Origin: a candidate division FCPU426 bacterium | GTDB taxonomy: Bacteria; Oederibacteriota; JAAXVQ01; JAUVAV01 | Assembly: GCA_040756875.1 (NCBI GenBank) | Contig: JBFLYH010000001.1 | Coordinates: 1 to 64,000 of the forward strand | Reading direction: 5' to 3' | Length of the DNA: 64,000 nt | In this document: positions 4,148 to 45,500 of the stretch, piece by piece | Position numbering within the stretch: position 1 is the first letter of the stretch | Layout: each line of letters starts with the position of its first letter | The notes under the pieces: generated by a model | What the model saw: only the letters and a program-made list of their open reading frames with translations | The model's database searches: none | Told to the model about the DNA's origin: nothing | Position numbers and translations under genes: made by a program

Positions 4148-4187
4148 ACCACCCCTCCTTGAATTGAGATTGAAAGCTAGTGGTGCC

Positions 4188-4216
4188 ATTATATATAATC
4201 GGCTGAGGTTTGACAA
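4188..4216 (-). promoter_or_regulatory. Sigma70-type promoter for the beta-barrel gene
   Basis: Minus strand TTGTCA-17 nt-TATAAT. Confidence 0.55.
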
Positions 4217-4266
4217 TTCTTTATCCCGAATAGGGGCGGAACATCGGTCGGTGTAGAGGAGAGGAA

Positions 4267-5375
<1,109 letters not shown>

Positions 5376-30631: not shown

Positions 30632-30844
30632 ATGTTTCGCGTAAAAGTAGACCCCAGACGCTGCAAGAGTTGTGAGTTGTGCCTGGCGGTCTGCCCGAAA
30701 AAGATCATGGTCATCACCCACGAGCGGAACGAGCACGGATTTCACGTGGCCGCCTGCCGGGACGAGCGGGAATGCACGGGCTGCCTGGCCTGCGCCCTGG
30801 TTTGCCCGGACGTGGCTATCGAGATTTTCGAGGACAAGGACTAA
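30632..30844 (+). CDS. 2-oxoacid:ferredoxin oxidoreductase delta subunit (2x[4Fe-4S])
   Basis: CKSCELCLAVCP and CTGCLACALVCP. Confidence 0.9.
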   Translation: MFRVKVDPRRCKSCELCLAVCPKKIMVITHERNEHGFHVAACRDERECTGCLACALVCPDVAIEIFEDKD

Positions 30845-31938
30845 TGAGCGCGCCGATGTTCATGAAAGGGAATGAAGCCATGGCCGAGGCGGCCATCCGG
30901 GCGGACTGCCGGTTTTATTTCGGCTATCCCATCACGCCGCAGAACGAGGTGCCGGCCTACATGTCCCGGCGCATGCCCGAAGCGGGCGGAACGTTTCTGC
31001 AGGCCGAGTCCGAACTGGCGGCCATTAACATGGTCTTCGGCGCGGCGGTCGCCGGCGCCCGGGCCATGACCTCTTCCTCCTCACCGGGCATTTCGCTGAA
31101 GCAGGAGGGCATCTCCTACATGGCCGCTTGCGAGCTGCCGGGCGTGATCGCCAACATCATGCGTGGCGGCCCGGGCCTGGGCAACATCTCGCCCTCGCAG
31201 TCGGATTACTTCCAAGCCACGCGCGGCGGCGGACACGGCGATTACCGCCTGATCGTGCTCGCGCCCCACACGGTCACCGAACTGGCCGAATTGACCATGG
31301 ACGCCTTCGACCTGGCGGATTACTATCGGAATCCGGTCATGATATTAGGAGACGGCCTGCTCGGCCAGATGATGGAAAAAGTTGAGTTTCCGGAACCCGA
31401 AGCGCGCCGGCGCACGGGGCTGCTGCGCGGGCGCCCGCTGCCCCCCAAGGACTGGGCCCTGACCGGCGCCCAAGGCCGGCCGCCGCGCTTGATCCGCTCC
31501 CTGCTCATGCAGCCGGGCGTGCTGGAACAGCACAATTTCCATCTGGCGGAGAAGTACGCGCGCATCGAACGGGACGAGCCCCTGGCTGAGGTGATCGGCT
31601 GTGAGGATGCGGACGTGGTGCTGGCGGGATTCGGCACCAGCGCGCGCGTGGCCAAGCAAGCCAGGGAGATGCTGCGGGCGCGGGGAATCAAGGCCGGGTT
31701 GTTCCGCCCCATCACGCTCTGGCCTTTCCCCTATGCCCAGCTGGCCGCGATCGCCCGGACGACGCGCCGTTTTCTGGTGGTGGAAATGAACCTGGGCCAG
31801 ATGATCGAGGACGTCCAACTGGCCGTGGCCCGCGAACGGAGCCTGAAGGACGCGACCATCGCCCTTTTGCCCCGGCCGGGCGGCGGCGTGCCGGTTCCGG
31901 AGGAAATCGTGGACAAAACCCTGGAGGTGCTGCGGTGA
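30844..31938 (+). CDS. vorB: 2-oxoacid (ketoisovalerate-type) ferredoxin oxidoreductase alpha subunit, VorB-like
   Basis: MKGNEA, FGYPITPQ, QAESE, TSSSSPG, RGGPGLG, GGGHGDY. Confidence 0.85.
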   Translation: MSAPMFMKGNEAMAEAAIRADCRFYFGYPITPQNEVPAYMSRRMPEAGGTFLQAESELAAINMVFGAAVAGARAMTSSSSPGISLKQEGISYMAACELPGVIANIMRGGPGLGNISPSQSDYFQATRGGGHGDYRLIVLAPHTVTELAELTMDAFDLADYYRNPVMILGDGLLGQMMEKVEFPEPEARRRTGLLRGRPLPPKDWALTGAQGRPPRLIRSLLMQPGVLEQHNFHLAEKYARIERDEPLAEVIGCEDADVVLAGFGTSARVAKQAREMLRARGIKAGLFRPITLWPFPYAQLAAIARTTRRFLVVEMNLGQMIEDVQLAVARERSLKDATIALLPRPGGGVPVPEEIVDKTLEVLR

Positions 31939-32690
31939 GCCGCCAGCTGTTTGCCCGCACGCCGGGCCTGAAGGATACGGTCACGACCTATTGCTCGGGT
32001 TGCGGACACGGAGTGGCGCACCGCCTCCTGGCCGAAGCCATCGAGGAGTCAGGCGCCCGCGAGCGCACGGTGGCCGTGGCGCCGGTGGGCTGCGCGGTCT
32101 ACGGCTATGATTACTGGAATTTCGACACCACCGAAGCCGCGCACGGCCGCACGCCGGCCGTGGCCGCGGCCATCAAGCGCGTACTGCCGGACCGCCTGGT
32201 GATCAGCTACCAGGGCGACGGCGACCTGGCTTCCATCGGGCTGGCTGAGATCATGCATGCGGCCAACCGGGGGGACCGGATCACGGTCATCTTCATCAAC
32301 AACACCAACTACGGCATGACCGGCGGCCAGATGGCGCCCACCACGCTGGCCGGGCAGGTTACCACGACCACCCCCCTGGGGCGGGACAGCGCCACGACCG
32401 GGCAGCCGCTGAAAGTGGCCGAACTCCTGGCGACCCTGCCCGGCGTCAAATACGCCGCGCGCGGGGCCCTGCACAAGCCCGGTTTGGTGCGCAAGGCCAA
32501 ATCCCTGATCCAGAAAGCGCTGGCCGTGCAGGAAGCGGGCCTGGGTTTTTCGGTGGTCGAACTGGTGTCGCTGTGCCCCACCAACTGGGGCCTGACCACC
32601 CTGCAGTCCGTGGAACTGGTGGAAAAACAGATCGTGCCGGTGTTTCCTCTGGGCGTTTTCAAGGACGAATCCGGCGCCAAGGCGGAATGA
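31935..32690 (+). CDS. 2-oxoacid:ferredoxin oxidoreductase beta (TPP-binding) subunit
   Basis: YCSGCGH, HGR, YQGDGD, NNTNYGMTGGQMAPTT, CPTNW. Confidence 0.92.
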   Translation: MSRQLFARTPGLKDTVTTYCSGCGHGVAHRLLAEAIEESGARERTVAVAPVGCAVYGYDYWNFDTTEAAHGRTPAVAAAIKRVLPDRLVISYQGDGDLASIGLAEIMHAANRGDRITVIFINNTNYGMTGGQMAPTTLAGQVTTTTPLGRDSATTGQPLKVAELLATLPGVKYAARGALHKPGLVRKAKSLIQKALAVQEAGLGFSVVELVSLCPTNWGLTTLQSVELVEKQIVPVFPLGVFKDESGAKAE

Positions 32691-33241
32691 GTATGCTGGA
32701 ACAAATCATTATCGCGGGGTCCGGCGGCCAGGGGATCCAGTTCTGCGGACAACTGCTGGCCCGGGCCGCGGTCCGGCAGGGCCTGGAAGCCACCTACGTT
32801 CCTTCGTACGGAGCCGAGCGCCGGGGCGGCCCCTCATTCTGCTCCGTGGTCGCGGCGGACCGTTCGATCTACGCCTCGCTGTTCAAGCATCCTGACATAT
32901 TCCTGGCGCTGGACCAGCGGGCGCGCAACCAGTACGCTTCCAGCCTGCTGAACGCCGGCATCATGCTGGTGAACACGGATCTGGCCGGACAGCCCGCAAC
33001 CGGCGAACAGGCCCGGGTTATTGGCCTTTCGGCCTCGCGTCTGGCGGAAAAAATCAATTTCGAGCAGCCGCCCCTGAACCTGGTCATGCTCGGCGCCTAT
33101 CTGGGCCTGGACCGGGGCGTGAGCATTGAGGCGGTGCGGGCCGAATTGGAAGCCCGCTTTGCCGGCAAACCGGACGTGAAGCAACGCAACCTCCAAGCCC
33201 TTGACCTGGGCTGGGAAGAAGGCAGGAGCCAAAGCCGATGA
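32687..33241 (+). CDS. 2-oxoacid:ferredoxin oxidoreductase gamma subunit
   Basis: AGSGGQG, PSYGAERRGG, NLVMLGA. Confidence 0.9.
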   Translation: MSMLEQIIIAGSGGQGIQFCGQLLARAAVRQGLEATYVPSYGAERRGGPSFCSVVAADRSIYASLFKHPDIFLALDQRARNQYASSLLNAGIMLVNTDLAGQPATGEQARVIGLSASRLAEKINFEQPPLNLVMLGAYLGLDRGVSIEAVRAELEARFAGKPDVKQRNLQALDLGWEEGRSQSR

Positions 33242-33693
33242 TCAGGAAAGCCACGCTTCAGGACGTACCGGCGATCCACCGGTTGATCAACAGCCGGGCC
33301 AAACAGGGCCAAATGCTGGCGCGCTCCTTGTCCGAAATATACGAGAATATCCGCGACTATTTCGTGGCCATCGAGCGCAAAGCCGTGGTGGGCGTGGCCG
33401 GCCTGCACGTCAACTGGGCGGATTTGGCCGAGATCAAATCCGTGGCTGTCAATCCGGCTTATCAGGGAAAGGGAGTGGGCCAGGCTCTGGTCCAGGCCTG
33501 CCTGGAGGAAAGCCGGGTTATGGCCATTCCCAAGGTGTTCGTGCTGACTTACGTGCCGGGTTTTTTCCGGAAACAGGGGTTTAAAAAGATCAAACGCGAA
33601 GCCTTGCCGCACAAGATTTGGAGCGATTGCATCAAGTGCCCGCATTTCCCCAATTGCAACGAAGAGGCCATGATCATCGGCTTGCGCCGCTAG
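33238..33693 (+). CDS. argA: Short GNAT N-acetylglutamate synthase-like protein
   Basis: MLARSLSEIYENIRD, LAEIKSVAV, LPHKIWSDCIKC, CNEEAM. Confidence 0.8.
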   Translation: MIRKATLQDVPAIHRLINSRAKQGQMLARSLSEIYENIRDYFVAIERKAVVGVAGLHVNWADLAEIKSVAVNPAYQGKGVGQALVQACLEESRVMAIPKVFVLTYVPGFFRKQGFKKIKREALPHKIWSDCIKCPHFPNCNEEAMIIGLRR

Positions 33694-33726
33694 CCCATCC
33701 GCCGCGTTCCGAGGAATCTGCCACCC

Positions 33727-34740
33727 ATGCCCGATGAAACGAATGCTGCTTTCACGCGGATAGCCGACCGGAGGGAAATCGGCCTTCAGCAGGTTGTCGA
33801 TACCCTTAAAATCGAAGATTGCCTGAAATCCCTGCAGGACGCGCATCAGTTGTCACCGCAGAAAACCGAGGAAATGAAGCTGATCGCCGGCGAGTTGGGC
33901 AAGAACGTCGTCAAGCACGGCGGCCAGGGCAAAATCATCATCACGCATTACGCCGCTGTCTTTCCCTGGGTGGAAATCATCACTGAAAACGTGGGCGCCC
34001 TGCCCGCGGACGCGATGAAAGACGGCGTTTCGACGCGGAACACCCTGGGCCTCGGCTTGGGCATGGTGTCACGGCTCTCCGACGCCTTTATCCGCGAGCA
34101 GGACGGGTATATTCTGCGCATGCGGGCGGTCAAGTACTGCCTGGATTTTCCCAACCGATCCGAAGTGGCGGTCCTCTCCTATCCCGTCATGATGCATGAA
34201 AACTGCAACGGCGACGCCTATTTTATCCACAAGGGGCGCGAGGACACGTTTTGCGTCATCGATGCCCTGGGCCACGGCGAGGAGGCGCACAAAAGCGCAG
34301 CCGCTGTTCTGGCGCACCTGAATTCCAACCCCGGGAAACCCGTTGATCACCTGGTGTACGGCGCGCACGAACTGTTAAAAGCGAAACACTTGCGCGGGGC
34401 GGCCATGGTGGTCGTACGGTTGGATTACGAGGCCCAAACGGTTCTGTTTGCGGGTTTGGGCGACGCGTTGGTGAAAATATTCCCTCCGAACGAAAGCGGC
34501 AGCCTAAGCCTGCTGCCGCAGGAGGGAATTGTCGGCGACGTCTGCCGGACGTTGGAAATTCAAAAGCAGGCGTTAGTGCCGGGCACGCTGATCGCCGTTT
34601 ATTCGGACGGCATTTCCAGCCGCCTGGCCATTCCCTGGGAACATCGCACCCAGCCTCCATTGCAATTGGTGAACGAACTGATGGCTAAATATGGCAAACT
34701 CCACGATGACCGGACTCTCTTGCTGGCTAAAATCCTCTAA
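33727..34740 (+). CDS. RsbT-like HATPase fused to an RsbX/SpoIIE-type PP2C phosphatase
   Basis: ELGKNVVKHG and DGVST..TLGLGL (GHKL boxes); NGD, IDALGHG, YSDGI and DDRT (PP2C). Confidence 0.85.
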   Translation: MPDETNAAFTRIADRREIGLQQVVDTLKIEDCLKSLQDAHQLSPQKTEEMKLIAGELGKNVVKHGGQGKIIITHYAAVFPWVEIITENVGALPADAMKDGVSTRNTLGLGLGMVSRLSDAFIREQDGYILRMRAVKYCLDFPNRSEVAVLSYPVMMHENCNGDAYFIHKGREDTFCVIDALGHGEEAHKSAAAVLAHLNSNPGKPVDHLVYGAHELLKAKHLRGAAMVVVRLDYEAQTVLFAGLGDALVKIFPPNESGSLSLLPQEGIVGDVCRTLEIQKQALVPGTLIAVYSDGISSRLAIPWEHRTQPPLQLVNELMAKYGKLHDDRTLLLAKIL

Positions 34741-34894
34741 CCCTGTTTCAGTCTCGCTAAAAAAGCCTTGAATCTAAAGCAAACTAGTAAAATCACCGAA
34801 CCTAAAGTATAATGAAAACCACTCTTAATACGGCCTTTAGCAGGGGCTAACCCGCGGACAAGGCCGAAATCTTTTTATGGCCGCAGGAGGAACT

Positions 34895-35119
34895 ATGGCA
34901 ACTGTCCAAATGAACCTGACCAAGCTTCGCTGTCCACAGCCGATTTTGAAAATCACGGCCAAATCCATTGAAATGAAGCCGGGCGATGTTTTGGAAGCAA
35001 CCGCCGACTGCCCGACGTTTGAAAATGATGTCCGCACGTGGTGCGAAAAGGTCGGCAAGGCGCTTATTTTCCTGCAAAAGAACGCGGACGGCGTTTTTCA
35101 CTGCAAAATCCAGTTCTGA
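34895..35119 (+). CDS. TusA/SirA family sulfur carrier
   Basis: LRCPQPIL (CPxP), PGDVLE, DVRTWC; AGGAGG RBS at 34885. Confidence 0.88.
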   Translation: MATVQMNLTKLRCPQPILKITAKSIEMKPGDVLEATADCPTFENDVRTWCEKVGKALIFLQKNADGVFHCKIQF

Positions 35120-35206
35120 CCCCCTGGCGCACTCACGGCGCGGACCGCTTTAGGCGGCGCCCGGCGGGCGTGGATAAAAACGCACCGAAACCAAAGGAGA
35201 TAAACG

Positions 35207-35944
35207 ATGACCGCTCACCCGATTTCCCCGGAGCTGTTGAAAGAATTGGAAGCCCACTTCAATGCGCTGCAGAAACTGGAACGCGGTGACGCTCAAATCC
35301 AGGCCCGCGAAGATTCCTCCGTGGAGATTGTTTCGCGCATGGGCGGCATGATCAATCAGCTGGCGAACATGTCCCGGGAATCGATCAAGCTGTCCATGGA
35401 GATGTCCCTGGCCATCGCCCAATTTCTGGACGTGCTCAACCAAATGGCGGCCGGCAACCTGAAGGCCCGTGCGCCGATTGATTTTGAAACCGAGGTCCTG
35501 GCGGCCTTGGGCAAAGGCATCAACACGGCCATTGCCAAGGTCCAGGAACGGACTCTGCTTGAGGAGCTCTTGAAGGAATTGTCCACGCCGGTTCTCTATG
35601 CGTGGGAAGGCGTGATCGTTATGCCCCTGATCGGCACCCTGACCAGCGACCGCGCGCAGGAAGCCATGGAAAAGCTGCTGAAAAGCATCACCCAGCATCA
35701 TGCCCGCGTCGCCCTGATCGACATCACCGGCGTGCCGGTCATCGATTCCATGGTCGCCCAGCACCTGATCCGGACGATCAAGGCCGTCAAGATTCTGGGG
35801 AGCGATGCCATCATCACCGGAATTTCAGCCGAAGTGGCCTCCATTTTGGTGAAGATCGGCATTGAAGTGGAGCAATTCATGACCCGCAGCAGCCTGCATG
35901 AGGGGTTGAAGCAGGCGATTAAAATGGTCGGAGCGAGCCAATAA
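35207..35944 (+). CDS. rsbR: Stressosome RsbR-like protein (helical/HAMP-like N-terminus plus STAS)
   Basis: ELSTPV, PLIGTLTSDRA, IDITGVPVIDSMVAQHL, ITGISAEVA. Confidence 0.88.
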   Translation: MTAHPISPELLKELEAHFNALQKLERGDAQIQAREDSSVEIVSRMGGMINQLANMSRESIKLSMEMSLAIAQFLDVLNQMAAGNLKARAPIDFETEVLAALGKGINTAIAKVQERTLLEELLKELSTPVLYAWEGVIVMPLIGTLTSDRAQEAMEKLLKSITQHHARVALIDITGVPVIDSMVAQHLIRTIKAVKILGSDAIITGISAEVASILVKIGIEVEQFMTRSSLHEGLKQAIKMVGASQ

Positions 35945-36301
35945 ATGAAGGTCCCGGTTCCCCTCATCAAAATCGGCCAAGTCGTGCTGGCGCCCATTGA
36001 GATCGAGCTGACGGACGAGATGGCCGAAGAACTCCACTTGGCGATACTCAAGAAAATCGAACTGACCCACGCCAGGGGATTGGTCATCGACGTCTCCCTC
36101 GTCGAAGTCATTGATTCCTACTTTGCCCGGATCCTGATCAACATCGGCCGGGCGGCGCATTGTTTGAATTGCATGACCGTGGTGGTCGGCATCACGCCGG
36201 AGGTGGCCTTCACCCTCACTCAGATGGGATTGACGTGGCGGGGCGTGCGCACTGCGCTGACGGTGGAGGAGGCTATTTCCATGGTTCAAGCCCATGGATG
36301 A
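35945..36301 (+). CDS. rsbS: Stressosome RsbS-like STAS protein
   Basis: VPLIKI, GLVIDVS, IDS (equivalent of B. subtilis Ser59), VVGITPEVAFTL. Confidence 0.88.
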   Translation: MKVPVPLIKIGQVVLAPIEIELTDEMAEELHLAILKKIELTHARGLVIDVSLVEVIDSYFARILINIGRAAHCLNCMTVVVGITPEVAFTLTQMGLTWRGVRTALTVEEAISMVQAHG

Positions 36302-36713
36302 CAGCTTTGTCATGCACATCGCCAGTGAGCAGCATATTCTGGCGGTGCGCCATGCGATCCGCGAACTGGTGAACCAGCGGCTGCAGTTCAATTCCCTGGA
36401 GCGGATGCACGTCATCACCGCCGTATCGGAACTGGTCCGCAACATCTACAACTATGCCAAGGAAGGCGACGTCGAAGCCAAGATCGTCCTGTCGCCTGCG
36501 GGAAAAAAGGGGATCCGGATCAAATTTGCCGATCACGGCCCGGGCATTCTGGATATCGAGAAAGCCATGCAGCCAAAAAGCATCCGGGAATTCGGCAAGG
36601 GCATGGGCATCGGCCTGAGCGGCAGCAAAAAACTGGCGGATGAGTTTTCGATCGAATCCCAGCCCGGGCTGGGAACGACCATCATCTGGACCCGCTGGGA
36701 GCGGTACGGCTGA
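36294..36713 (+). CDS. rsbT: Stressosome Ser/Thr kinase RsbT
   Basis: TAVSELVRNIYNYA, DHGPGI, GMGIGLSGSKKLADEF, GTTI. Confidence 0.9.
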   Translation: MDDSFVMHIASEQHILAVRHAIRELVNQRLQFNSLERMHVITAVSELVRNIYNYAKEGDVEAKIVLSPAGKKGIRIKFADHGPGILDIEKAMQPKSIREFGKGMGIGLSGSKKLADEFSIESQPGLGTTIIWTRWERYG

Positions 36714-36768
36714 AGGGCGGGGAAGGGGTGGCGGGCCTGTCCCGACGACATTTCTCTGGGAGTCATGA

Positions 36769-38718
36769 ATGCCCGGTGATGCACTCAAGATGGGCTTGAT
36801 GCTCTGCAAATGCGGGAACACGATTTTTCAGGCCGTCGATTTCGACGCTGTCGTGGCCTGGGCCCGGAAACGCCACGATTTGCAATTCGTTCTTTTTCAT
36901 GACCTGCTTTGTTCCGCGGAAGGCCGAAGCTACACGCTGGAAGTCCTCCAACAGGAAAAACCCGACCGCTTGATCATCGCCGCCTGCTCGCCCAGGGCCC
37001 ACGAAGCCACCTTCCGGGCAGTGGCGGAAAAGGCCGGCTTGAATCTGGCCGCCATCCACATGGCCAACATCCGCGAGCACTGCGCCTGGGTGACCACGGA
37101 CAAAGCCGAGGCCACTCGCAAAGCCATCGCCCTGATCCGGGCGGCGGTCGAACGCGCCCGGCGGCACGAGCCCCTGCAGCGCCGGAGCGTGGAATGCAAC
37201 ACAGACCTGGTCGTAATCGGGGGCGGCATTGCCGGCATGGAAGCCGCCTTGCTGGCCTCCCAGGCCGGAAGGAAAGTGACCCTCGTCGAGCGGGACATCT
37301 CCCTGGGCGGCCGGCTGATGCAAACCGAGGAATTGGCCCCGAACATGGAATGCGCCCCCTGCCTGCTGTCGCCGCGGCTCTTTAAAATCAAGGATGATCC
37401 GAACATCACCATTCTGACCCATTCCGAGGTCACCGGAGTTCTGGGGTTTCACGGCAATTTCACGGTCAAAATCCGCAAGCGCGCCCGGTACGTGAACCAG
37501 AACTGCGTGGGTTGTGAAGCCTGCTTTCCGGTTTGCCCGGTGGAGGTGAAAAGCGGGTTCCACCTGGGCTTGGGCACCCGCAAGGCTGTTTATACGCTCT
37601 TCCCAGGCTCGGTTCCCGCCGCGGCGGCCATTGACAGGCAAGCCTGTCTGCATTTCAAGGACGGCTCGTGCCGGGCCTGCGCCGAAGCCTGTTCCTTCGG
37701 GGCCGTGGATTTTGAGGATAAAGACGAGGAAAGGGCGATATCCGCCGGCGCCGTAATTCTGGCCACGGGTTTTACGCCCTTCGATCCTTCGCCGCTCGCC
37801 CGCCTGGGCTATGGGAAGATACCGGAAGTTTACAGCCTGCCCGAATTCGAACGGATCTCAAATTCCAACGGCCCCTCTCAGGGCACGATCCGGCGCCGGG
37901 ACGGAAAAATCCCGGCTTCGGTGGCTGTGATCCACTGCGTTGGATCGCTGCAGGATACGGCCTTGCCCTACTGCTCGGGCATTTGCTGCCTGCTGGCCGC
38001 CAAGGTCGGGGAAGTCGTGCGCAAGCAGAACCCGAAGGCCAAGGTGTTCAATATCCACGACCGCCTGGTGTTTGCCGGCCAGGCGGCGCAGGAATTTTAC
38101 ACCGAGCAGGTCAAGGCCGGCACCCAATTCCTGGCGACCAGGGATTTGGCCAAGGTAACGCTGGTTCGGAAAAAAGGCGCCGTGGAAATACGAATGCCCG
38201 GCCAAAAACCCTTTGGCGTCGACATGGTGGTATTGGCCACTGGCGCCGGCCCGGCCGGTGATGCGGAAACCCTGGGGACATTGCTTCAGATCGAAAGCGG
38301 GCCCGCCGGTTTCTTCAAACCCGACAGTCACTTCCTGCATTCCATCGGCACCAGCCTGGACGGCATCTACCAGGCCGGCGGATGCGCAGGCCCGTGCCTG
38401 GCTGACCAAGCCGTGGTGCAGGCTCAGGCTGCGGCCGGAGAAGCTGTCAGCCAGTTGGTGCCTGGCAAAAAGATCGAGTTGGAGATTCAGACTTCGATCA
38501 TCGATCCCGATTTGTGCAAAGGCTGCCGGCTGTGCGAAGCGTTGTGCCCTTTTTCGGCCATCGCCTACCGCCCGGAACTCAGGGTGTGCGAAATCAACGA
38601 GGCCGTTTGCCGCGGTTGCGGCACTTGTGTGGCAGGCTGCCCCAACCTGGCCATCGGCGCCAGGCATTTTCAAGACGCGCAATTGCAGGCGGAATTGGAA
38701 GGGCTGCTCAATGACTGA
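36769..38718 (+). CDS. hdrA: Heterodisulfide reductase subunit A family flavo-iron-sulfur protein
   Basis: CKCG, CS, ACSP, NIREHC (N-terminal cluster); GGGIAG FAD site; inserted ferredoxin; EFER; CVGS...YCSGICC....K; C-terminal 2x[4Fe-4S]. Confidence 0.92.
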   Translation: MPGDALKMGLMLCKCGNTIFQAVDFDAVVAWARKRHDLQFVLFHDLLCSAEGRSYTLEVLQQEKPDRLIIAACSPRAHEATFRAVAEKAGLNLAAIHMANIREHCAWVTTDKAEATRKAIALIRAAVERARRHEPLQRRSVECNTDLVVIGGGIAGMEAALLASQAGRKVTLVERDISLGGRLMQTEELAPNMECAPCLLSPRLFKIKDDPNITILTHSEVTGVLGFHGNFTVKIRKRARYVNQNCVGCEACFPVCPVEVKSGFHLGLGTRKAVYTLFPGSVPAAAAIDRQACLHFKDGSCRACAEACSFGAVDFEDKDEERAISAGAVILATGFTPFDPSPLARLGYGKIPEVYSLPEFERISNSNGPSQGTIRRRDGKIPASVAVIHCVGSLQDTALPYCSGICCLLAAKVGEVVRKQNPKAKVFNIHDRLVFAGQAAQEFYTEQVKAGTQFLATRDLAKVTLVRKKGAVEIRMPGQKPFGVDMVVLATGAGPAGDAETLGTLLQIESGPAGFFKPDSHFLHSIGTSLDGIYQAGGCAGPCLADQAVVQAQAAAGEAVSQLVPGKKIELEIQTSIIDPDLCKGCRLCEALCPFSAIAYRPELRVCEINEAVCRGCGTCVAGCPNLAIGARHFQDAQLQAELEGLLND

Positions 38719-39145
38719 TTTCGAACCGCGAATTGTGGCTTTTGTCTGCAACTGGTGCGCCTATGGGGGCGCAGACCAGGCTGGCGGACAAAAACTCGCG
38801 TATCCCGCCAATGTCCAACTGGTGCGCGTGATGTGCAGCGGCCGGGTGTCTCCCCGGTTGGTCCTGGAAGCTTTTCGGATGGGAGCAGACGGGGTGATGG
38901 TGCTGGGCTGTCATCCTGGAGACTGCCATTACCGAAATGGGAACCTTAAAGCCGAGAAGCGCTTTAAAACCTTTAAAAAAGTGCTGGCCCAGCTGGGCAT
39001 TGAAGAAGCGCGCTGTCTGCGGGATTGGGTGGCGGCCTCGGAGGGGAAGAAGTTCCAGGAACTGGCTGTCGCCATGACGCGAACGATAAAGCGCCTGGGC
39101 CCCTTGCGCTTAACGGCGAAACCCGGTCCGGGAGGCGGGACATGA
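38711..39145 (+). CDS. mvhD: MvhD/FlpD-type [2Fe-2S] subunit
   Basis: FVCNWCAYGGAD, RVMCSGRV, GADGV, GCHPGDCHY..GN. Confidence 0.93.
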   Translation: MTDFEPRIVAFVCNWCAYGGADQAGGQKLAYPANVQLVRVMCSGRVSPRLVLEAFRMGADGVMVLGCHPGDCHYRNGNLKAEKRFKTFKKVLAQLGIEEARCLRDWVAASEGKKFQELAVAMTRTIKRLGPLRLTAKPGPGGGT

Positions 39146-41040
39146 AGAAAAAGGCCGCTCCCGGCATTATCCTAAAACAAAGCAGACCCGCCAAGCAATC
39201 CGCAGGCAGCGATTATTCCGCGGGTACAGGGCCGGAAGTGTCCTTGCTGCTCAATGGCGAGGAAATATCCGTGGCCCGCGATACGACGATATACGATGCG
39301 GCTGTACAAAACGGCGCGTGTTTCGCCCGCCCGGAGGACGTGGCCGAAACCTCTTGGATTCACAACGGCGATTGCTATCTGCTTAGCATTGCGGAAGTCA
39401 ACCAGGTTTTGATGCCGGTGGCGGCGATGAAAAAGAGGCCAGTGGCACAGGGCATGCGCATCAACACCGAATCCCCTAAAATAAAGGCCAGCCTGCGCGA
39501 CCGGGTCAAGCAATTGCATGAACGGCAGGAATGCGCCGTTGTCAGGCAAATCCAGGAATTGTGCGCAGCCGAGGCGGAATCCGCCGGATTTGTCTCGGCG
39601 CCGGAAAGGGAAAAGTGGGGTTTCGCAGACCGCCTGACCGGGCCGTCCATTTTGCATGAGCCGAACAAATGCCTGCGCTGCGAAGCGTGCGTCAACGCCT
39701 GCAAAGACCTCCAGGGAGTGGACGCCCTGCGCAAGGATCCTGCGTTGGGGATCGTGGTGGACGAAACCAAATGCGTGCGTTGCGGGCAGTGCATTCTGGC
39801 TTGCCCCATGGGCTCGCCGGAGAACCTGGCCGCCTATCTTGACCTGATGGGATGCCATATGTGCCCGTTTTCACGGCCCTTGGGCGCAATGAGGGAGCAG
39901 GACGATACGGCCAGGGTGTTGCAAGCGCTGAATGATCCGGATCAATACGTGGTCGTGCAATTTGCCCCCTCGGTCAGGGCCACCCTGGGCGAGGCCTTCG
40001 GCATCGCGCCGGGCGCTTTAGTCACCAACCAATTGTACGCCGCTTTGCGCCGGGCCGGTTTTGACCGGATCTGGGACACCAACTTCGCCGCTGACCTCAC
40101 GATCATGGAGGAAGGCTCCGAACTGATCGCGCGCCTTCAGCGGCAAGGGCCTCTGCCGCAACTGACCTCCTGCTCGCCGGGCTGGGTCAATTACATCGAA
40201 ACCTTCTATCCGGAGTTGCTGCCGCTGGTTTCCTCCGCCAAATCACCCCAGCAAATGTTCGGCGTGGCGGCAAAAACCTATGCCGCGGAAAAATTGCGCG
40301 TCGCTCCGGGGAAAATGACCGTGGTATCCATTATGCCGTGCACGGCTAAAAAATACGAAGCGGCCCGCAAAGAAATGAACGCAGCCTGGGAATACTGGCG
40401 CCGGAAGGGGCTGAACCAAGACCCCTTTCAGGACGTGGACGTTGTACTGACGACACGCGAGGCGGCCAAGCTTTTAAAAATACTGAACATCGATGTGTCA
40501 AAAATGCCAGAGGAAGGCCCTGATCCGCTTTTAGGCGCGTATTCCGGCGCAGCACCCATTTTCGGACGGACCGGAGGTGTCATGGAGGCTGCCTTGCGGA
40601 CGGCCTACGAGCTGCTGACCAATACCCCTCTGGGTGAGCTGGAGTTCTCAGAGCTGGGAACCGTGGAAGGCATAAAAAGGGGCCGGGTCCTGATCAACGG
40701 GTCGGAAATCAAAGTCGCTGTGGCCCACGGGCTGGCCAATGCCCGGCAGGTGCTGGAATCCATCAAGCAGAAGGGCGAATTTTCCCGCTACCATTTCATC
40801 GAGATCATGTGCTGCCCTGGCGGGTGCGTGGGAGGGGGAGGTCAGATTGTTTCCACCAACCTGCCCCGGATCGTCAAACGAACCCTTGGCATCAATCAGG
40901 ATGACCGCCAGCGTGAAATAAGAAAATCCCATCAAAACAAGGAAATCCAGGCGCTATACCGGGATTTCCTCGGACAGCCTTTAAGCCGGCTGGCGCATGA
41001 ACTGCTGCATACCAAGTATTCCGCCCGTCCACCCAAGTAA
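39142..41040 (+). CDS. hydA: [FeFe]-hydrogenase catalytic subunit (group A-like)
   Basis: H-cluster motifs TSCSPGW, MPCTAKKYE, EIMCCPGGCVGGGGQ; ADLTIMEE, GGVMEAA; 2x[4Fe-4S]; fused small-subunit tail (RKSH...HELLHTKY). Confidence 0.93.
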   Translation: MKKKAAPGIILKQSRPAKQSAGSDYSAGTGPEVSLLLNGEEISVARDTTIYDAAVQNGACFARPEDVAETSWIHNGDCYLLSIAEVNQVLMPVAAMKKRPVAQGMRINTESPKIKASLRDRVKQLHERQECAVVRQIQELCAAEAESAGFVSAPEREKWGFADRLTGPSILHEPNKCLRCEACVNACKDLQGVDALRKDPALGIVVDETKCVRCGQCILACPMGSPENLAAYLDLMGCHMCPFSRPLGAMREQDDTARVLQALNDPDQYVVVQFAPSVRATLGEAFGIAPGALVTNQLYAALRRAGFDRIWDTNFAADLTIMEEGSELIARLQRQGPLPQLTSCSPGWVNYIETFYPELLPLVSSAKSPQQMFGVAAKTYAAEKLRVAPGKMTVVSIMPCTAKKYEAARKEMNAAWEYWRRKGLNQDPFQDVDVVLTTREAAKLLKILNIDVSKMPEEGPDPLLGAYSGAAPIFGRTGGVMEAALRTAYELLTNTPLGELEFSELGTVEGIKRGRVLINGSEIKVAVAHGLANARQVLESIKQKGEFSRYHFIEIMCCPGGCVGGGGQIVSTNLPRIVKRTLGINQDDRQREIRKSHQNKEIQALYRDFLGQPLSRLAHELLHTKYSARPPK

Positions 41041-41044
41041 GTGC

Positions 41045-41072
41045 TTGACTCGACCGGAAAAATCCGTATATT
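41045..41072 (+). promoter_or_regulatory. Candidate promoter for the tRNA pair
   Basis: TTGACT-16 nt-TATATT. Confidence 0.5.
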
Positions 41073-41154
41073 AAATGGACTTTGATCAGCAGTGGCGGTG
41101 AATTTAACGATCATCCCTGCTTTTCAGAACGTTTTTTAAGTGCATGCAAGTCAT

Positions 41155-41231
41155 GGGCGGATAGCTCAGTTGGTTAGAGCGCCTGCCTTACAAGCAGGAG
41201 GTCACAGGTTCGAACCCTGTTTCGCCCACCA
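41155..41231 (+). tRNA. tRNA-Val(TAC)
   Basis: GGGCGGA acceptor stem, TAGCTCAG D arm, CCTGC-ctTACaa-GCAGG anticodon arm, GGTTCGAA T loop, encoded CCA. Confidence 0.97.
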
Positions 41232-41412
41232 GCGTTTCGCCCTGGCGGGCGAAACGCAGAGCAGGCGAGCAGTTGAACAGTTGAACAGGAGATTAAAGCG
41301 AGCCTGCGGTCACCTGCTCTGCTGTTCCACTGGTCGATTTTTCACATGATCGTTTTAATGAATTTAAGCAGTTGAACAGCTGGACAGGTGAGCTGATTCG
41401 CTGCGTTTATAT

Positions 41413-41490
41413 GGGGTCGTAGCTCAGCTGGTTTAGAGCGCCTGCCTGTCACGCAGGAGGCCGCGGGTTCGAGCCCCGTCGACCCCGCCA
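41413..41490 (+). tRNA. tRNA-Asp(GTC)
   Basis: GGGGTCG/CGACCCC acceptor stem, CCTGC-ctGTCac-GCAGG anticodon arm, GGTTCGAG T loop, encoded CCA. Confidence 0.97.
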
Positions 41491-41496
41491 GTAAAT

Positions 41497-41528
41497 AAAA
41501 AGCCCGGTCCAAAAGGACCGGGCTTTTT
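41497..41528 (+). terminator. Intrinsic terminator after tRNA-Asp
   Basis: AAAAAGCCCGGTCC-aaaa-GGACCGGGCTTTTT. Confidence 0.88.
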
Positions 41529-41691
41529 ATTTACTGATAGGAGATTGATGGGAGATTCGAACTCAAGGGGGTCTGGGGGAGAAGCTCCCCCAGGCACTCG
41601 GGGTGACAGCGACGAGCTTGCGAGGAGCGCCAGAGGGGCAGAGCCCCTATGGAGAGCGCCGGGAGGCGCGAGGGTTCTAGGCCAAAGGCCG

Positions 41692-41712
41692 GAGCCCCGT
41701 CGACCCCGCCAG
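41692..41712 (+). repeat. Exact direct repeat of the tRNA-Asp 3' end (att-like)
   Basis: GAGCCCCGTCGACCCCGCCAG is identical to 41471-41491. Confidence 0.9.
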
Positions 41713-41829
41713 AAAATAAAACACCCAGCCCTTTCAGGCTGGGTACTTAATTTTCTGCAGGTGTTCGGAAGACGAGGCGAGAACTCAGGGAGTATGGGAA
41801 AGATATCCCCCTGCTCGAAGCGTCGGCAT

Positions 41830-42198
41830 TTAATCCGGCGTTTCGACGCGCAGACGATGGACGTCCGGGTCCAGACCCATAAAATGGGTGCTGCCAAAAT
41901 ACATTTTCTGGGGCGGTATGATGATGCGAATCCCCTTTTGGACCCATGGTTGATGCAGCTCGTTTAACGCGGCCGTACCCGTGACCGTGAAGCTCAGCTC
42001 TGCCGAGGCGCTCATGGCAGGGGCAGGAGGTTGCAGCTTGTTGCGGTCATAGATGGAGAATTCGAAACCATGATCGAGCTTGAACATCGCATAGAAGGGG
42101 GACGCTAAAGTGGGTTTTTGATTGAATAAATCCGAATAGAACGCCGAGCTTTTGACGATATCGATGACATAAAATAACACTGCGTTTGGTTGGGGCAT
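41830..42198 (-). CDS. VOC/glyoxalase family protein
   Basis: FYVIDIVKSSAFYSDLF, ELSF, FG..F...DPD.H.LRV; GGGGAGG RBS. Confidence 0.85.
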   Translation of the reverse strand: MPQPNAVLFYVIDIVKSSAFYSDLFNQKPTLASPFYAMFKLDHGFEFSIYDRNKLQPPAPAMSASAELSFTVTGTAALNELHQPWVQKGIRIIIPPQKMYFGSTHFMGLDPDVHRLRVETPD

Positions 42199-42535
42199 AC
42201 CGACCTCCCCTATTATCAAATCGTTCGTTTTGCCGCTAAAAACATTTTCTGTCAGCAACGCGACCTAAGCATTGGACCCCTGAATAATTGGATCTGTGGA
42301 ATCGGAATGGAACCGTTGTATCCCTATTAATGGATGGAGTATACCCGCGGGCGCAGAGAAAAAACTAGCAATTTCAATGTTTTTATGGGATTTTGTTAAA
42401 CGCGGCCACTAAAGACTGCGGGCTGTCCAGGCACCTGTTCCATTTTTAACTAAAAGTGGCCGCTTTCATGATAACGGGTGGCCGTTTGGGCCCGGCGCAT
42501 GCAGGTGACGAGAAACCGAAGTCCCGAGGGGAAGC

Positions 42536-45500
42536 ATGAATTTATTTATACGGAAATGGTATTTAACCGGACTTACTATCCTGCTGTCCGGCGGATTGAT
42601 GATTGGGGGCGCTGCCGGGTTGGGATTCAAGGCACAAGGGCAGGACTGGCGGCAGGCTAAACGGTTGTTCGCGTGGCAGGCAAGCAAAGCATCGGTGAAA
42701 ACGAACATCGCCATAAACTCCCAGGCGGCTAAAGCAGGGGCAAATGAAAATTGGCTCAGCCAAGTTATAAGGCGGATCGAAACCCAGGAATATACGGCGT
42801 TGAAAAACGCGGAAGGCCAATGGCAGGCGCCGAATAGGAAACAGCGGTTGCGGACGGTTTTTGCGAGCGACGGCATTGAAGTGGCGCCGCAGTTCATTTC
42901 CCGGGGAACCGCCGGACAACTGTTGCCGGGCAAAGGACCTAAGACCGTTCAGGTTGCTCAGACACAAAGCGCTCAATGGACATGGCGATGGCAGACCCAG
43001 GCAATCGGGAGGACGGGCGCTATGCGCTCTGTGCCGGACATCGCGCCAAAAGCCGAAGGCAACCGGGTGGAGTATGCGCGTGAGGATTTCGTCGAATGGT
43101 ATGAGAACAAACCCGAAGGCGTGGAACAGGGATTTGTCATTCATCGGAAACCGGAAATCAATCGGGGCGCTCAACCGGACACCGATACAGTGGGCATCCA
43201 ATCCCAGCCCATCCTGGGCTTGATCCCCCGTTTATCCCCGGACCAACAGCGCATCGAATTTCTAGATCAACATCAGGCCAAAGTTCTGGAATACGGCAAA
43301 CTGCTGGTTCGGGATGCGCGCGGAAAGGTTCTGCGCTCCGAACTTCGGCTGGAAAACAACCGAATCATGCTGGCTTATGATGATCACGCTGCTGCCTATC
43401 CTGTGCATATTGATCCCTTGCTGACAACCCCGGCCTGGACTGCTGACGGGGACCAGAACGGCGCCTATTTCGCCTGGTCGGTGGCGAGCGCCGGGGATGT
43501 GAACAACGACGGGTATGGCGATGTGATCGTAGGTGCGTCCCATTACAGCAATGGCGAGACGTATGAAGGCCGCGCGTTTGTGTATCATGGGAGCGCCTCG
43601 GGACTGGCCGCAACCCCGGCGTGGACCACTGAGGGCAACCTGCTTGGTGCCTATTTCGGCCATTCGGTGGCGAGTGCGGGTGATGTCAATGGCGACGGAT
43701 ACAGTGATGTGGTTGTAGGCGCTTTTAATTATAATAACGGGGAAGTGGGCGAAGGCCGCGTGTTTGTTTATCACGGAAGCGCCTCGGGACTGGCCGCAAC
43801 TCCGGCCTGGACCGCCGAGAGCAACCAGGCCGGTGCGCATTTCGGCTATTCAGTAGCGAGTGCCGGGGATGTGAACGGCGATGGGTACGCGGATGTGATC
43901 GTGGGCGCCCGCTATTATACCAATGGCGAGTCGCGGGAAGGCCGCGCCTATGTGTATCATGGGAGCGCCTCGGGACTGGCCGCAACCCCGGCGTGGACCG
44001 GCGAGAGCAATCAAGTCGATGGGTATTTCGGCTATTCGGTGGCGAGCGCCGGAGATGTGAACGGCGACGGATACAGCGATGTGATTGTGGGCGCTTACAA
44101 CTGCTATAGCGGCGAGGCGGGGGAAGGCCGCGCATTTGTCTATCATGGGAGCGCTTCCGGCTTGGCCGCAACCCCGGCCTGGACTGCGGAGAGCAATCAG
44201 GTTAATGCTTGTTTTGGCTATTCCGTGGCGGGCGCGGGGGATGTGGATGGCGACGGATACAGCGATGTGATTGTGGGCGCCATCGCGTATGACAATGTAG
44301 AGGCGAATGAGGGCTGCGCGTTCGTGTATCACGGGAGCGCCTCGGGTCTGGGCGCAACCCCGGCGTGGACCGCCGAAAGCAATCAAAACAGTGCGGAGTT
44401 CGGCTATTCCGTGGCGGGCGCAGGTGATGTGAATGGCGACGGATACGCTGATGTGATCGTGGGCGCTTGTTTATATGACAACGGCGACATGGACGAAGGC
44501 CGCGCCTATGTGTATCTTGGCGGCGCTTCAGGTTTGGCTGCAACTCCAACTTGGACTGATGAGGGAAATCAATACAACGCCCGGTTCGGCTATTCGGCGT
44601 CAAGCGCCGGGGATGTGAACGGCGACGGGTACTCGGACGTGATGGTGGGCGCTTATTTATATGACAATGGCGTGCCTGATTTGGGCCGCGTATTTGTCTA
44701 TCACGGGGGCGCTTCAGGGCTCGCGGCTGCCCCGGCCTGGACAGCAGAGAGCGATCAGGCAAACGCCAACTTTGGCTGGATGGTGTCAAGCGCCGGGGAC
44801 GTGAACGGCGACGGTTACAATGACGTGATCGTAGGCGCGCGCGGATACGATGCCATGGGCAGAGTTTATGTTTATCATGGCAGCGCCAGCGGACCCTCCC
44901 TGGCACCGGACTGGACGGCCGCCGGGGATCAGGCAGGCGCTTATTTCGGCAATGCGGCGGCGGCGGCCGGGGATGTGAACGGCGACGGGTACGGTGATGT
45001 GATTATCAGCGCCCATTGGTACACCCACGGCGAGACCAATGAGGGCATGGTTTATGTGTATCACGGGAGCGCAACCGGACTCTCGGCCACGCCCGACTGG
45101 ACCGCGGAAGGCGACCAGGCGAGCGCTTATTTCGGCACCAGCCTGGCGGGCGCAGGGGATGTGAATGGCGACGGGTATGCCGACGTGATTATCGGAGCAC
45201 CCAACTATGACCATGGCGAAGCGGATGAAGGCCAGGTGTTTGTCTATTGCGGAAGCGCAAGCGGACTTGGCAGCACTCCGGCCTGGACTGCTGAAAGCGA
45301 CCAAGCCATTGCCCAGATGGGCTCGTGCGTGGCTTCGGCTGGAGACGTGAACGGTGATGGGTTCAGCGATGTAATTGCAGGCGCGCCTTTTTACAGCAAT
45401 GGCGAGTCGCGGGAAGGCCGCGCGTTTGTTTATCATGGGTACGCGGGTGGACTTTACGTCACCCCGGCTTGGACCACGGAGAGCAACCAGGTGAATGCCT

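Follow-up and report, generated by a model that had tools for sequence, protein, structure and literature searches.

In methanogen HdrA, the Glu of the EFER motif and the Lys after CSxxCC flank the bifurcating FAD. In the solved complexes, the low-potential branch uses the N-terminal cluster ligands together with the inserted ferredoxin domain. To our knowledge, HdrA has so far been shown to bifurcate with partners of the HdrBC type, and we know of no disulfide- or persulfide-reducing site in HdrA itself. The sulfur-oxidizing Hdr-like (sHdr) systems are accompanied by TusA/DsrE and lipoate-protein accessory genes; we know of no role of TusA as an electron acceptor of HdrA. According to two reports, MvhD plugs varied electron-input modules into HdrA, as in FdhAB-MvhD-HdrABC and MetFV-HdrABC-MvhD (PMC6085437, PMC7325909).

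Gene organization

The window analysed is a 64,000-nt stretch of the genome of a candidate division FCPU426 bacterium. It contains hdrA (36769–38718, 649 aa), mvhD (38711–39145, 144 aa) and hydA (39142–41040, 632 aa), all on the + strand. The mvhD start ATG lies within the stop region of hdrA (ATGACTGA), with an overlap of 8 nt, and hydA overlaps mvhD by 4 nt in an ATGA. A GGAGG located 6 nt upstream of the hydA start is a good ribosome-binding site. The overlaps noticed in an earlier sequence-only reading are thus borne out with every coordinate correct, and so is the three-gene unit of HdrA, MvhD and [FeFe] HydA with no adjacent HdrBC. All three genes appear intact, and the overlaps and the hydA ribosome-binding site indicate that they are tightly coupled. 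Positions 32500–42500 are spanned without differences by one contig from an independent assembly of run X1 (possibly the source sample); the arrangement is therefore no assembly artefact. None of the RNA runs contains the locus.

A 7.5 kb block (33673–41154) that includes the operon is missing from the syntenic site of G032, a genome of the same genus. There, at most about 80 nt separate a 2-oxoacid:ferredoxin oxidoreductase/GNAT block (window 30647–33672, 82% identity) from the tRNA region (from window 41155 on), and G032 has no match to the sequence in between. The block is therefore accessory. The GC3 of its genes is 0.65–0.77, and the genome median is 0.71. The right-hand boundary is formed by tRNA-Val(TAC) (41155–41231, + strand), where the homology to G032 restarts, and tRNA-Asp(GTC) is located at 41413–41490 on the same strand (both by ARAGORN). 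Apart from the operon, the block encodes on the + strand a HATPase_c_2 + SpoIIE (PP2C) fusion resembling partner-switching phosphatase/kinase regulators (33727–34740; Pfam 30.9 and 28.2 bits), a TusA-like protein (34895–35119), a 245-aa protein with a C-terminal STAS domain (Pfam 48.4 bits) and an N-terminal part matching no family (35207–35944), an anti-anti-sigma-like STAS-domain protein (35945–36301; Pfam 36 bits) and an RsbW/SpoIIAB-like serine kinase (36294–36713; HATPase_c by Pfam; NCBIfam spIIAB 50.4 bits, below the cut-off of 135).

HdrA, MvhD and HydA

HdrA is a full-length flavoprotein with N-terminal, thioredoxin-reductase-like, inserted ferredoxin and C-terminal ferredoxin domains. 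The solved methanogen HdrA (8rvu_a) aligns with it end to end (E 2e-133, residues 7–649), and according to the printed alignment each Cys group aligned to Cys of that chain is retained. The EFER Glu and the Lys after CSxxCC, on which the earlier reading had laid weight, are indeed present ('LPEFERIS' and 'YCSGICCLLAAKVG'), both aligned with identical residues of 8rvu_a. The top NCBIfam match is HdrA2 (552.9 bits, below the cut-off of 1100). MvhD is a [2Fe-2S] adaptor subunit (Pfam FlpD 167.7 bits), matched by 8rvu_F over residues 3–135 (E 7.6e-47). It also retains all Cys groups aligned to the solved chains, and Cys13, 16, 42, 67 and 72 are invariant in 10/10 aligned relatives.

The operon HydA (HydA3) is an [FeFe]-hydrogenase catalytic subunit with the Pfam domains Fe_hyd_lg_C (295 bits), Fe_hyd_SSU and 2x[4Fe-4S]. 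It passes the TIGR02512 model '[FeFe] hydrogenase, group A' (452.7 bits, cut-off 405.95) and fails the NADH-dependent A6 model (585, cut-off 765), which the other two HydAs of the genome pass. It shares 37–39% identity with these two HydABC-type proteins and is no copy of them. The best other HydA among 98 genomes of the phylum scores 472 bits (45% identity), and HydAs of its own clade from outside the phylum reach 690–870 bits (50–60%); by these scores, the operon HydA is foreign to its phylum. This clade is a distinct, MvhD-associated one within group A; a quick tree (32 vs 17 rows) separates it with an SH-aLRT of 100. HydA3 itself has a long branch (0.57 in this tree), an N-terminal extension of 30 residues, and Leu at the position of Cys538, which is present in 32/33 clade members.

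At the [2Fe-2S] and His-[4Fe-4S] sites of M3-type HydAs, one Cys each is left in the operon HydA, and a 25-residue insert brings an extra CxxC. Cys131, Cys238 and Cys241 are present in 33/33 clade members, and Cys78 in 32/33. The clade has lost both N-terminal ligand sets and gained these four Cys residues, which probably bind a clade-specific cluster, as their conservation and the model contacts described below suggest. In a complex model of HydA and MvhD, the median ipSAE is 0.79 (runs 0.79, 0.84 and 0.79), and the best of three controls is 0.00. The runs have at least 71% of contacts in common, with a partner pLDDT of at least 75. Of 80 solved complexes, 58 also attain the mark of this pair, as do 2 of 110 mismatched pairs; these counts are a rough guide since own alignments were used. 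The predicted HydA interface (residues 79, 89–102, 132–147 and 228–236) is the clade-specific part, and the neighbours of Cys78, Cys131 and Cys238 all contact MvhD residues 94–95. The model, whose score expresses model confidence, suggests that MvhD docks on the clade-specific surface of HydA.

Distribution of the operon and of the HydA clade

An MvhD homologue was found in 28 of the 99 genomes of the phylum. HdrA is encoded directly upstream of MvhD in 24 of 28 other loci, and three of the remaining four have too little flank. MvhG and MvhA follow MvhD in 11/28 loci, including all five closest relatives, where the order is hdrA-mvhD-mvhG-mvhA of the [NiFe] group 3c type (identity 65–76% for MvhD and 53–60% for HdrA). 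HydA follows mvhD in 1/29 loci, only in this genome (1/99 of the phylum), in which neither MvhG nor MvhA is detectable. The operon MvhD falls among the MvhDs of its own order and family, where its sister in the grouping is the MvhD of G019, a [NiFe]-linked one (support 93/82). In the operon of this genome, the [NiFe] pair MvhA/MvhG has been replaced by the single [FeFe] HydA.

The HydA clade is recurrently linked to MvhD: fused, adjacent or behind hdrA. Three protein clusters of the clade (P0078, P0084 and P0108) are MvhD::HydA fusions. The metagenome locus L142 has the order tusA-hdrA-mvhD-hydA, and in L145 hdrA is followed by an mvhD::hydA fusion. In G180 and G214, a ferredoxin::MvhD fusion is encoded directly upstream of hydA with no HdrA, and L143 has a solitary clade HydA with no mvhD within 6 kb upstream. 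MvhD is adjacent or fused in 5/7 clade loci with context, and HdrA is present in 3/7. As clade members occur alone or with ferredoxin::MvhD, the hydrogenase does not need HdrA as such.

The maturase genes hydE, hydF and hydG, which the sequence-only reading had proposed to look for, are all found in the genome above the NCBIfam cut-offs. That reading had also considered HydBC encoded elsewhere as partners; both HydB/HydC sets of the genome adjoin their own M3-type HydA, and therefore HydA3 need not borrow them.

Candidate acceptors

The high-potential partner had been left unnamed in the earlier reading. This holds insofar as hdrB and hdrC are found neither in the window nor adjoining the operon, and canonical hdrBC is not found in the genome. 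However, two candidates exist: a protein with a CCG domain encoded in trans and the operon-associated TusA-like protein. The former, HdrB/D-like and the only such ORF (G000:C1:337999-339186, 395 aa, 33 bits), is clustered with a DsrE2-like protein, a second MvhD (MvhD2) and two HdrA-like proteins. The latter is a small sulfur-carrier protein of 74 aa (Pfam TusA 54.9 bits, cut-off 28.6) with Cys13 in a CPxP motif, Cys39, Cys50 and Cys70. Its gene adjoins the operon in 7/8 loci examined (this genome, where three regulator genes lie between tusA and hdrA, 5/5 close [NiFe]-type relatives and L142). The remaining locus, L145, reaches only some 180 nt upstream. In G023, two of three conserved Cys are lost. 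Since the gene accompanies the operon in this way, this co-inherited thiol/persulfide protein is the best candidate for the acceptor or its carrier.

Proposed mechanism and alternatives

We think it rather probable that HdrA, MvhD and HydA form one cytoplasmic complex, a counterpart of MvhAGD-HdrA with [FeFe] HydA in place of MvhA/MvhG. H2 would be split or made at the H-cluster, and electrons would pass through two [4Fe-4S] F-clusters to the clade-specific cluster, probably bound by Cys78, Cys131, Cys238 and Cys241, and then to the [2Fe-2S] cluster of MvhD docked at that surface. From MvhD they would reach the FAD through the C-terminal ferredoxin domain of HdrA. By analogy with the solved Mvh-Hdr complexes, the FAD would split the electron pair, and one electron would go to a higher-potential acceptor other than HdrBC. 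The complex could also run in reverse and produce H2; we infer both the bifurcation and the direction of electron flow.

The same complex could form and not bifurcate, acting as a plain H2:acceptor (or acceptor:H+) oxidoreductase in which the FAD of HdrA only converts one- and two-electron steps, or links H2 with ferredoxin or TusA-bound sulfur. We regard this as possible, though on the unlikely side. The block encodes neither HdrB, HdrC nor another obvious second-acceptor subunit, G019 (100% complete) has the [NiFe] version and no CCG-domain protein, clade HydAs also pair with simple ferredoxin::MvhD, and two bifurcating hydrogenases of the HydABC type are already encoded elsewhere in the genome. 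Against this, HdrA has its full cofactor architecture: neither the inserted ferredoxin domain nor the N-terminal cluster ligands are missing. The flavin-adjacent Glu and Lys are retained as well, and a flavoprotein with six clusters would be a costly wire. Pairing of HdrA with the CCG protein in trans, which would bring back a disulfide reductase of the classical Hdr type, is quite improbable. Such an ORF exists in the cluster described above, but it has HdrA-like and MvhD partners of its own and scores below every NCBIfam cut-off. G032 encodes a homologue of it and has no hdrA-mvhD, and no homologue is found in G019, G024 and G025 (completeness 100, 92 and 87%), all with hdrA-mvhD-mvhGA; the domain occurs in 5/15 genomes of the order. 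The CCG protein belongs to another locus.

The partner-switching genes directly upstream, in the same indel block, raise the idea of a regulatory hydrogenase that senses H2, or is acted on by such a sensor, in the manner of the phosphatase-linked sensory [FeFe] hydrogenases. No sigma-factor gene lies 3' of the RsbW-like kinase gene, and chemotaxis genes (MCP, or CheB/CheR) are located upstream of hdrA in G019, G022 and L142. We nevertheless give this idea very little weight, as Pfam shows neither a PAS nor any other signalling domain in HydA, the protein ends in the small-subunit domain, its L2 and L3 motifs are standard with L1 a TSCSP variant, and it scores as group A. Moreover, the upstream regulators differ between relatives, and their role may simply be to regulate how the operon is expressed. 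That HydA is a stand-alone ferredoxin-dependent hydrogenase, placed behind mvhD by chance and not interacting with MvhD or HdrA, would fit solitary clade members such as L143. The ATGA overlap, the natural MvhD::HydA fusions, the three-gene order repeated in two unrelated metagenome contigs and the predicted HydA–MvhD complex make it highly improbable.

Comparison with known systems

The favoured complex resembles MvhAGD-HdrABC of methanogens ([NiFe] group 3c; solved structures include 5odc and 8rvu) in the alignable full-length HdrA and MvhD, and the order hdrA-mvhD-hydrogenase is common to this operon and the bacterial MvhAGD-HdrA-type relatives. It differs in the single HydA instead of MvhA and MvhG, in having no HdrB/HdrC, and in the TusA-like gene alongside. 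Among HydABC enzymes, HydA1 (7q4v_A) is the closest solved catalytic domain (E 1.7e-117), and the TSCSPGW L1 variant is common to both. In contrast to HydABC, the operon HydA has no adjacent HydB/HydC, no longer possesses the ligand sets of the N-terminal [2Fe-2S] and His-ligated [4Fe-4S] clusters, has the new CxxC insert, and falls below the A6 cut-off in a separate clade; the flavin module here would be HdrA (FAD), not HydB (FMN). The TusA-like gene adjoining the Hdr module here, in five relatives and in L142, and a lipoate-protein ligase-like gene 3' of the L145 operon recall sHdr systems, but this operon has a hydrogenase and no HdrB1/B2/C1/C2 genes, and the resemblance is a lead only. FdhAB-MvhD-HdrABC and MetFV-HdrABC-MvhD follow the same principle of an exchangeable adaptor (PMC6085437, PMC7325909), with an [FeFe]-hydrogenase as the input here. 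No published description of an [FeFe]-hydrogenase as input module of MvhD-HdrA was found in the literature searched. The operon points to an undescribed wiring of hydrogen into energy-saving electron splitting, through a HydA whose type is little known and which seems made for docking to the adaptor MvhD.

Operon structure and subunits

The genes hdrA (36769–38718, 649 aa), mvhD (38711–39145) and hydA (39142–41040) are located on the forward strand. The mvhD ATG lies within the end of hdrA (ATGACTGA), resulting in an 8-nt overlap, and the hydA ATG overlaps the mvhD stop codon (ATGA), with GGAGG 6 nt upstream. The overlap of the three genes had been described in the sequence-only reading, and the window sequence bears this out. 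As tRNA-Val and tRNA-Asp come next, hydA is the last gene of the unit. The stretch 32500–42500 shows 0 differences from one contig that was assembled independently from run X1, which may be the source sample. Neither the promoter scan (3 versus 2.6 in shuffled sequence) nor the terminator scan (15 versus 11.3) exceeded the shuffled sequence.

HdrA residues 7–649 are aligned to the solved methanogen HdrA chain 8rvu_a (E = 2e-133). According to the alignment, Cys is retained at every Cys group of 8rvu_a: the N-terminal domain, the flavin-domain CxxC, both halves of the inserted ferredoxin domain, the C...CSxxCC group and the C-terminal 2x[4Fe-4S] domain. The Glu of EFER and the Lys after CSGICC, both pointed out in the sequence-only reading, are found and are aligned with identical residues of 8rvu_a; we take them to be residues with a role at the flavin. 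The HdrA score is under the NCBIfam equivalog cut-offs (552.9 versus 1100). MvhD is canonical (FlpD, 167.7 bits; solved methanogen MvhD chain 8rvu_F, E = 7.6e-47), and its five Cys residues are invariant in 10 of 10 relatives aligned.

The product of hydA is called HydA3 here, as the genome encodes two further HydAs. It matches Fe_hyd_lg_C (295 bits), Fe_hyd_SSU (72.8 bits) and a 2x[4Fe-4S] domain, and it scores above the cut-off of TIGR02512, the NCBIfam model of group-A [FeFe]-hydrogenases (452.7 versus 405.95). The translated motifs are TSCSPGW (L1), MPCTAKKYE (L2) and EIMCCPGGCVGGGGQ (L3). By the H-cluster domain, the three motifs and the family-model score, HydA3 qualifies as a catalytic group-A [FeFe]-hydrogenase. 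Residue 345 (window about 40174–40176) is Ser at the second Cys position of L1, where the Cys is a [4Fe-4S]H ligand in CpI numbering. In the clade to which HydA3 belongs, the L1 motif is TSCSP in 27 of 33 members and TSCCP in the other 6. As the same Ser is carried by those 27 members and by chain 7q4v_A, HydA1 of the solved HydABC complex, it is no mark of decay. HydA3 fails the NCBIfam A6 (NADH-dependent) model, with 585.3 against a cut-off of 765, whereas the other two HydAs pass with 818.8 and 851.4. None of the neighbours that define the HydDB groups A1–A4 (HydB, GltD-like, Fdh) adjoins hydA; judged by gene context alone, HydA3 matches none of A2–A4.

A separate clade associated with MvhD

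A recent paralogue was considered as the origin of HydA3 and was ruled out; HydA3 shows 37–39% identity to the two HydABC-type (M3-type) HydAs of the genome and falls in a different clade. The best other HydA among 98 other genomes of the phylum gave 472 bits (45% identity), while relatives with 50–60% identity (690–870 bits) were found in a collection of 5.8 billion proteins. Their source names include Thermogutta and other Planctomycetes, Omnitrophica, Zixibacteria, Sumerlaeota, Verrucomicrobia, Anaerolineales, Bathyarchaeota, Thermodesulfatator and Desulfonauticus. In a quick maximum-likelihood tree of 49 rows, 32 rows of the HydA3 clade were split from 17 conventional M3 enzymes, which include the genome's own two, with an SH-aLRT value of 100. 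HydA3 itself forms the longest branch within its subclade; it has a 30-residue N-terminal extension, and its residue 538 is Leu, a position occupied by Cys in 32 of 33 clade members. No true orthologue was present among the 80 genome-contig loci listed (39–47% identity over the full length, with three partial matches at 54–57%), and samples of other phyla contained members in 0 of 401, 0 of 351, 0 of 301 and, in one sample, 2 of 401 genomes.

Compared with the M3 enzymes, the clade retains one of the four [2Fe-2S] ligands (C78) and one of the four ligands of the His-[4Fe-4S] cluster (C131). The linker inside the F-domain is shorter, and an insert of 25 residues past the second CP contains a CxxC (C238 and C241). 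All 33 aligned members have C131, C238 and C241, and 32 of them have C78. From this pattern we infer that C78, C131, C238 and C241 may bind one cluster, substituting for the two lost ones.

The clade is linked to MvhD in several ways. Three protein clusters (768–773 aa) are MvhD::HydA fusions. Among the 80 metagenome loci kept, four contain a clade HydA: L142 has the order cheB-cheR-tusA-hdrA-mvhD-hydA, and L145 has hdrA, an mvhD::hydA fusion and an lplA-like gene. In L143 the clade HydA is solitary, and in L144 it has an N-terminal extension other than MvhD. In the two sampled genomes of another phylum, a ferredoxin::MvhD fusion directly precedes each clade HydA. These fusions (L242, 8094–10548; L243, 8049–10511) are 2x[4Fe-4S] ferredoxin::MvhD proteins of 214–217 aa, and in the genome with L243 a second HydA, a TM1266-like regulator gene and hydF lie downstream. 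Thus MvhD is fused or adjacent in 5 of 7 clade loci with readable context, and HdrA is present in 3 of 7. A search for an HdrA-MvhD-HydA triple fusion among longer proteins gave nine matches, all of other architectures, which is weak evidence of absence. Two Bacillota loci from genome contigs (L071, 5021–9848; L089, 3782–9054) encode an MvhD::NuoF-C-terminal-4Fe-4S fusion of 274–275 aa, followed by two tandem ordinary M3-type HydAs. Such fusions beside ordinary HydAs occur in 3 of the 80 genome-contig loci listed, and they tie MvhD to [FeFe]-hydrogenases in yet another way.

The complex model of HydA3 and MvhD gave a median ipSAE of 0.79, which expresses the confidence of the model, and the best of three controls gave 0.00. 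The runs share at least 71% of contacts, and the partner pLDDT is at least 75. Of 80 solved complexes 58 attain this mark, as do 2 of 110 mismatched pairs; both counts apply only approximately, because own alignments were used. The predicted HydA face for MvhD is the clade-specific part of HydA, and the neighbours of C78, C131 and C238 all contact MvhD residues 94–95. The contacts predicted beside these three Cys residues fit a cluster at the docking face. We know of no similar HydA–MvhD complex.

Replacement of the hydrogenase

MvhD homologues were found in 28 of 99 genomes of the phylum. Besides the window's locus, HdrA is encoded directly 5' of mvhD in 24 of 28 loci (in three of the other four the flank is too short), and MvhG and MvhA follow mvhD in 11 of 28. 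An [FeFe]-type HydA after mvhD occurs in 1 of 29 loci, that of the genome studied here. The five closest loci, from genomes of the same order (G019, G022) and the same family (G023, G024, G025), are all hdrA-mvhD-mvhG-mvhA, and their identities to the window are 65–76% for MvhD and 53–60% for HdrA. The hyp genes come next after mvhA in G022 and G023. In the MvhD tree, the window protein and its G019 counterpart are sisters (support 93/82) within the clade of close relatives. These loci and the MvhD tree indicate that HdrA and MvhD belong to the lineage, and that the hydrogenase alone differs.

The genome (3.22 Mb, 7 contigs) is 100% complete. Using MvhA and MvhG of G023 as tblastn queries, no match was detected in it at E <= 1e-6. 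The sole NiFeSe_Hases match is a membrane-bound, complex-I-like group-4-type [NiFe] hydrogenase; hypA, hypB, hypE and hypF are also there. The sequence-only reading would have failed if no complex formed, without the maturases, or with HydBC partners of HydA3 encoded elsewhere; none of these three outcomes was encountered. HydE (311.9 bits; cut-off 254.6), HydG (505.2; 312.15) and HydF (538; 325.55) are all encoded, and the only two Complex1_51K genes, near 281k and 1362k of the same contig, each lie beside the other HydAs. These two M3-type HydAs each adjoin their own NuoF/NuoE-like HydB/HydC.

The 7.5 kb block and the TusA-like gene

The operon is part of a 7.5 kb block (33673–41154) of regulators, tusA, hdrA, mvhD and hydA, bounded by the 3' end of a GNAT gene and tRNA-Val. 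At the syntenic site of G032, a genome of the same genus, the 2-oxoacid:ferredoxin oxidoreductase and GNAT genes (82% identical) run directly into the tRNA-Val region. As G032 is without the entire stretch there, 33673–41154 is an indel. The GC3 of the block is inside the range of the genome, and the operons of the close relatives have other surroundings. Just left of the block, 30679–33241 (+) encodes a three-subunit 2-oxoacid:ferredoxin oxidoreductase, which is likely a source or sink of the ferredoxin used by the hydrogenases. To the right, 42536–47176 (+) encodes a protein of 1546 aa with FG-GAP repeats and, at its C-terminus, a sorting domain of type IX secretion.

The block contains a partner-switching set (33727–36713, +) of a HATPase_c_2::SpoIIE protein, a 245-aa STAS protein whose N-terminal half is unassigned, another STAS protein and an RsbW-like kinase. 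The set is immediately followed by hdrA, and the kinase gene has no sigma-factor gene after it. Chemotaxis genes (MCP, or CheB and CheR) lie just 5' of hdrA in G019 (L130, 4236–5765), G022 (L131, 5054–6166) and L142 (2–1802).

A TusA-like ORF of 74 aa with four Cys residues (34895–35119, +; TusA family, 54.9 bits), which the sequence-only reading had not listed, lies after the gene of the PP2C-type regulator and ahead of the first of the STAS genes. Homologues lie directly 3' of mvhA in G019, G022, G023 and G025, convergent to mvhA in G024, and 5' of hdrA in L142. Cys13 (in CPxP) and Cys39 are each conserved in 6 of 7 sequences, and Cys50 in 7 of 7. As no other redox gene is common to these loci, the TusA-like protein is the best candidate for the missing partner; we know of no precedent for such a role. 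In L145 a lipoate-protein ligase-like gene (4122–4913) directly follows hdrA and mvhD::hydA. TusA and lipoate-protein ligase-like genes resemble accessory genes of sulfur-oxidising Hdr-like systems.

Proposed function and alternatives

The best-supported reading is one complex of HdrA, MvhD and HydA, with MvhAG replaced by an [FeFe]-hydrogenase that docks on MvhD. The hydA gene might be merely adjacent to mvhD, with no functional link, as the solitary HydA of L143 might suggest; considering the fusions and the predicted interface, this is less likely. It is also less likely that HdrA uses a CCG protein in trans. The genome contains one CCG (HdrB/D-like) ORF (337999–339186 of the contig, 395 aa). 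This single CCG-domain ORF belongs to a second Hdr-like cluster (331950–339190; locus L009, 7953–15186), together with genes for a DsrE2-like protein, an MvhD-like protein of 159 aa, a GltD/NfnB::HdrA fusion of 922 aa and an HdrA-like protein of 578 aa. Of 15 genomes of the order, 5 encode a CCG protein, independently of hdrA-mvhD: G032 has a CCG homologue and is without hdrA-mvhD, and G019 (100% complete) has hdrA-mvhD-mvhGA and is without a CCG protein. There is at most a slight chance that HdrBC acts in trans.

A sensory role of HydA3, linked to the neighbouring partner-switching genes, is less likely as well; unlike the sensory group C (HydS-like) enzymes, HydA3 has no C-terminal PAS or other signalling domain, and Fe_hyd_SSU at residues 577–629 of 632 reaches the end of the protein. 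The main rival is a non-bifurcating H2:acceptor enzyme. The grounds for bifurcation are solely the complete HdrA architecture and analogy, from which the HdrA-MvhD-HydA complex would bifurcate electrons. A joint reading would combine these points. The HydA3 clade would be an undescribed [FeFe] clade specialised for electron delivery via MvhD, with a single rewired four-Cys cluster, located where MvhD docks, in place of the two N-terminal clusters of M3 enzymes. In the lineage studied here it would have displaced the [NiFe] MvhAG in an HdrBC-less HdrA-MvhD-TusA system, hence an H2-driven flavin-based bifurcating enzyme reducing ferredoxin and a TusA-bound sulfur or disulfide species. Taken as a whole, this joint reading is possible but rather doubtful.

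HdrA-based bifurcation receives electrons from [NiFe] hydrogenase, formate dehydrogenase, F420H2 or NADH modules, and to our knowledge [FeFe]-hydrogenases bifurcate through HydBC only. If the joint reading is true, HdrA would have a new high-potential branch in the TusA-bound sulfur or disulfide. A natural exchange of [NiFe] for [FeFe] on one HdrA-MvhD chassis would show that MvhD is a general plug for both hydrogenase superfamilies, and that a group-A clade with a distinctive cluster arrangement lies outside the current A1–A4 labels. The three subunits and the small TusA-like protein would be a compact setting for HdrA function without HdrBC, a question for many bacterial group 3c loci too. 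The complex would also be a candidate engineering part for H2-linked reduction of low-potential ferredoxin. The literature searched, main texts of full-text articles from outside the subscription journals, includes reviews that treat bifurcating enzymes as well as multimeric and archaeal [FeFe]-hydrogenases; in the texts searched we found neither an HdrA-MvhD-[FeFe]HydA unit nor an [FeFe]-hydrogenase fused to MvhD described. All parts of the operon are known modules. The HydA3 clade and the TusA-linked mode without HdrBC have a real chance of being new biology.

Comparison with known systems

Like MvhADG-HdrABC, the operon encodes the [2Fe-2S] subunit MvhD and an HdrA of full length, in which the FAD domain and every cluster-binding Cys group are present. 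Unlike that system, the genome is without the [NiFe] large and small subunits MvhA and MvhG and without an HdrB belonging to the operon, its lone CCG match being located in another Hdr-like cluster. In contrast to the bifurcating HydABC (Bfu, group A3), no NuoF-like HydB or NuoE-like HydC is encoded in the block. HydA3 also differs from M3-type HydA in that neither Fer2_4 nor NADH-G_4Fe-4S_3 is matched, with one of four ligands left at each site.
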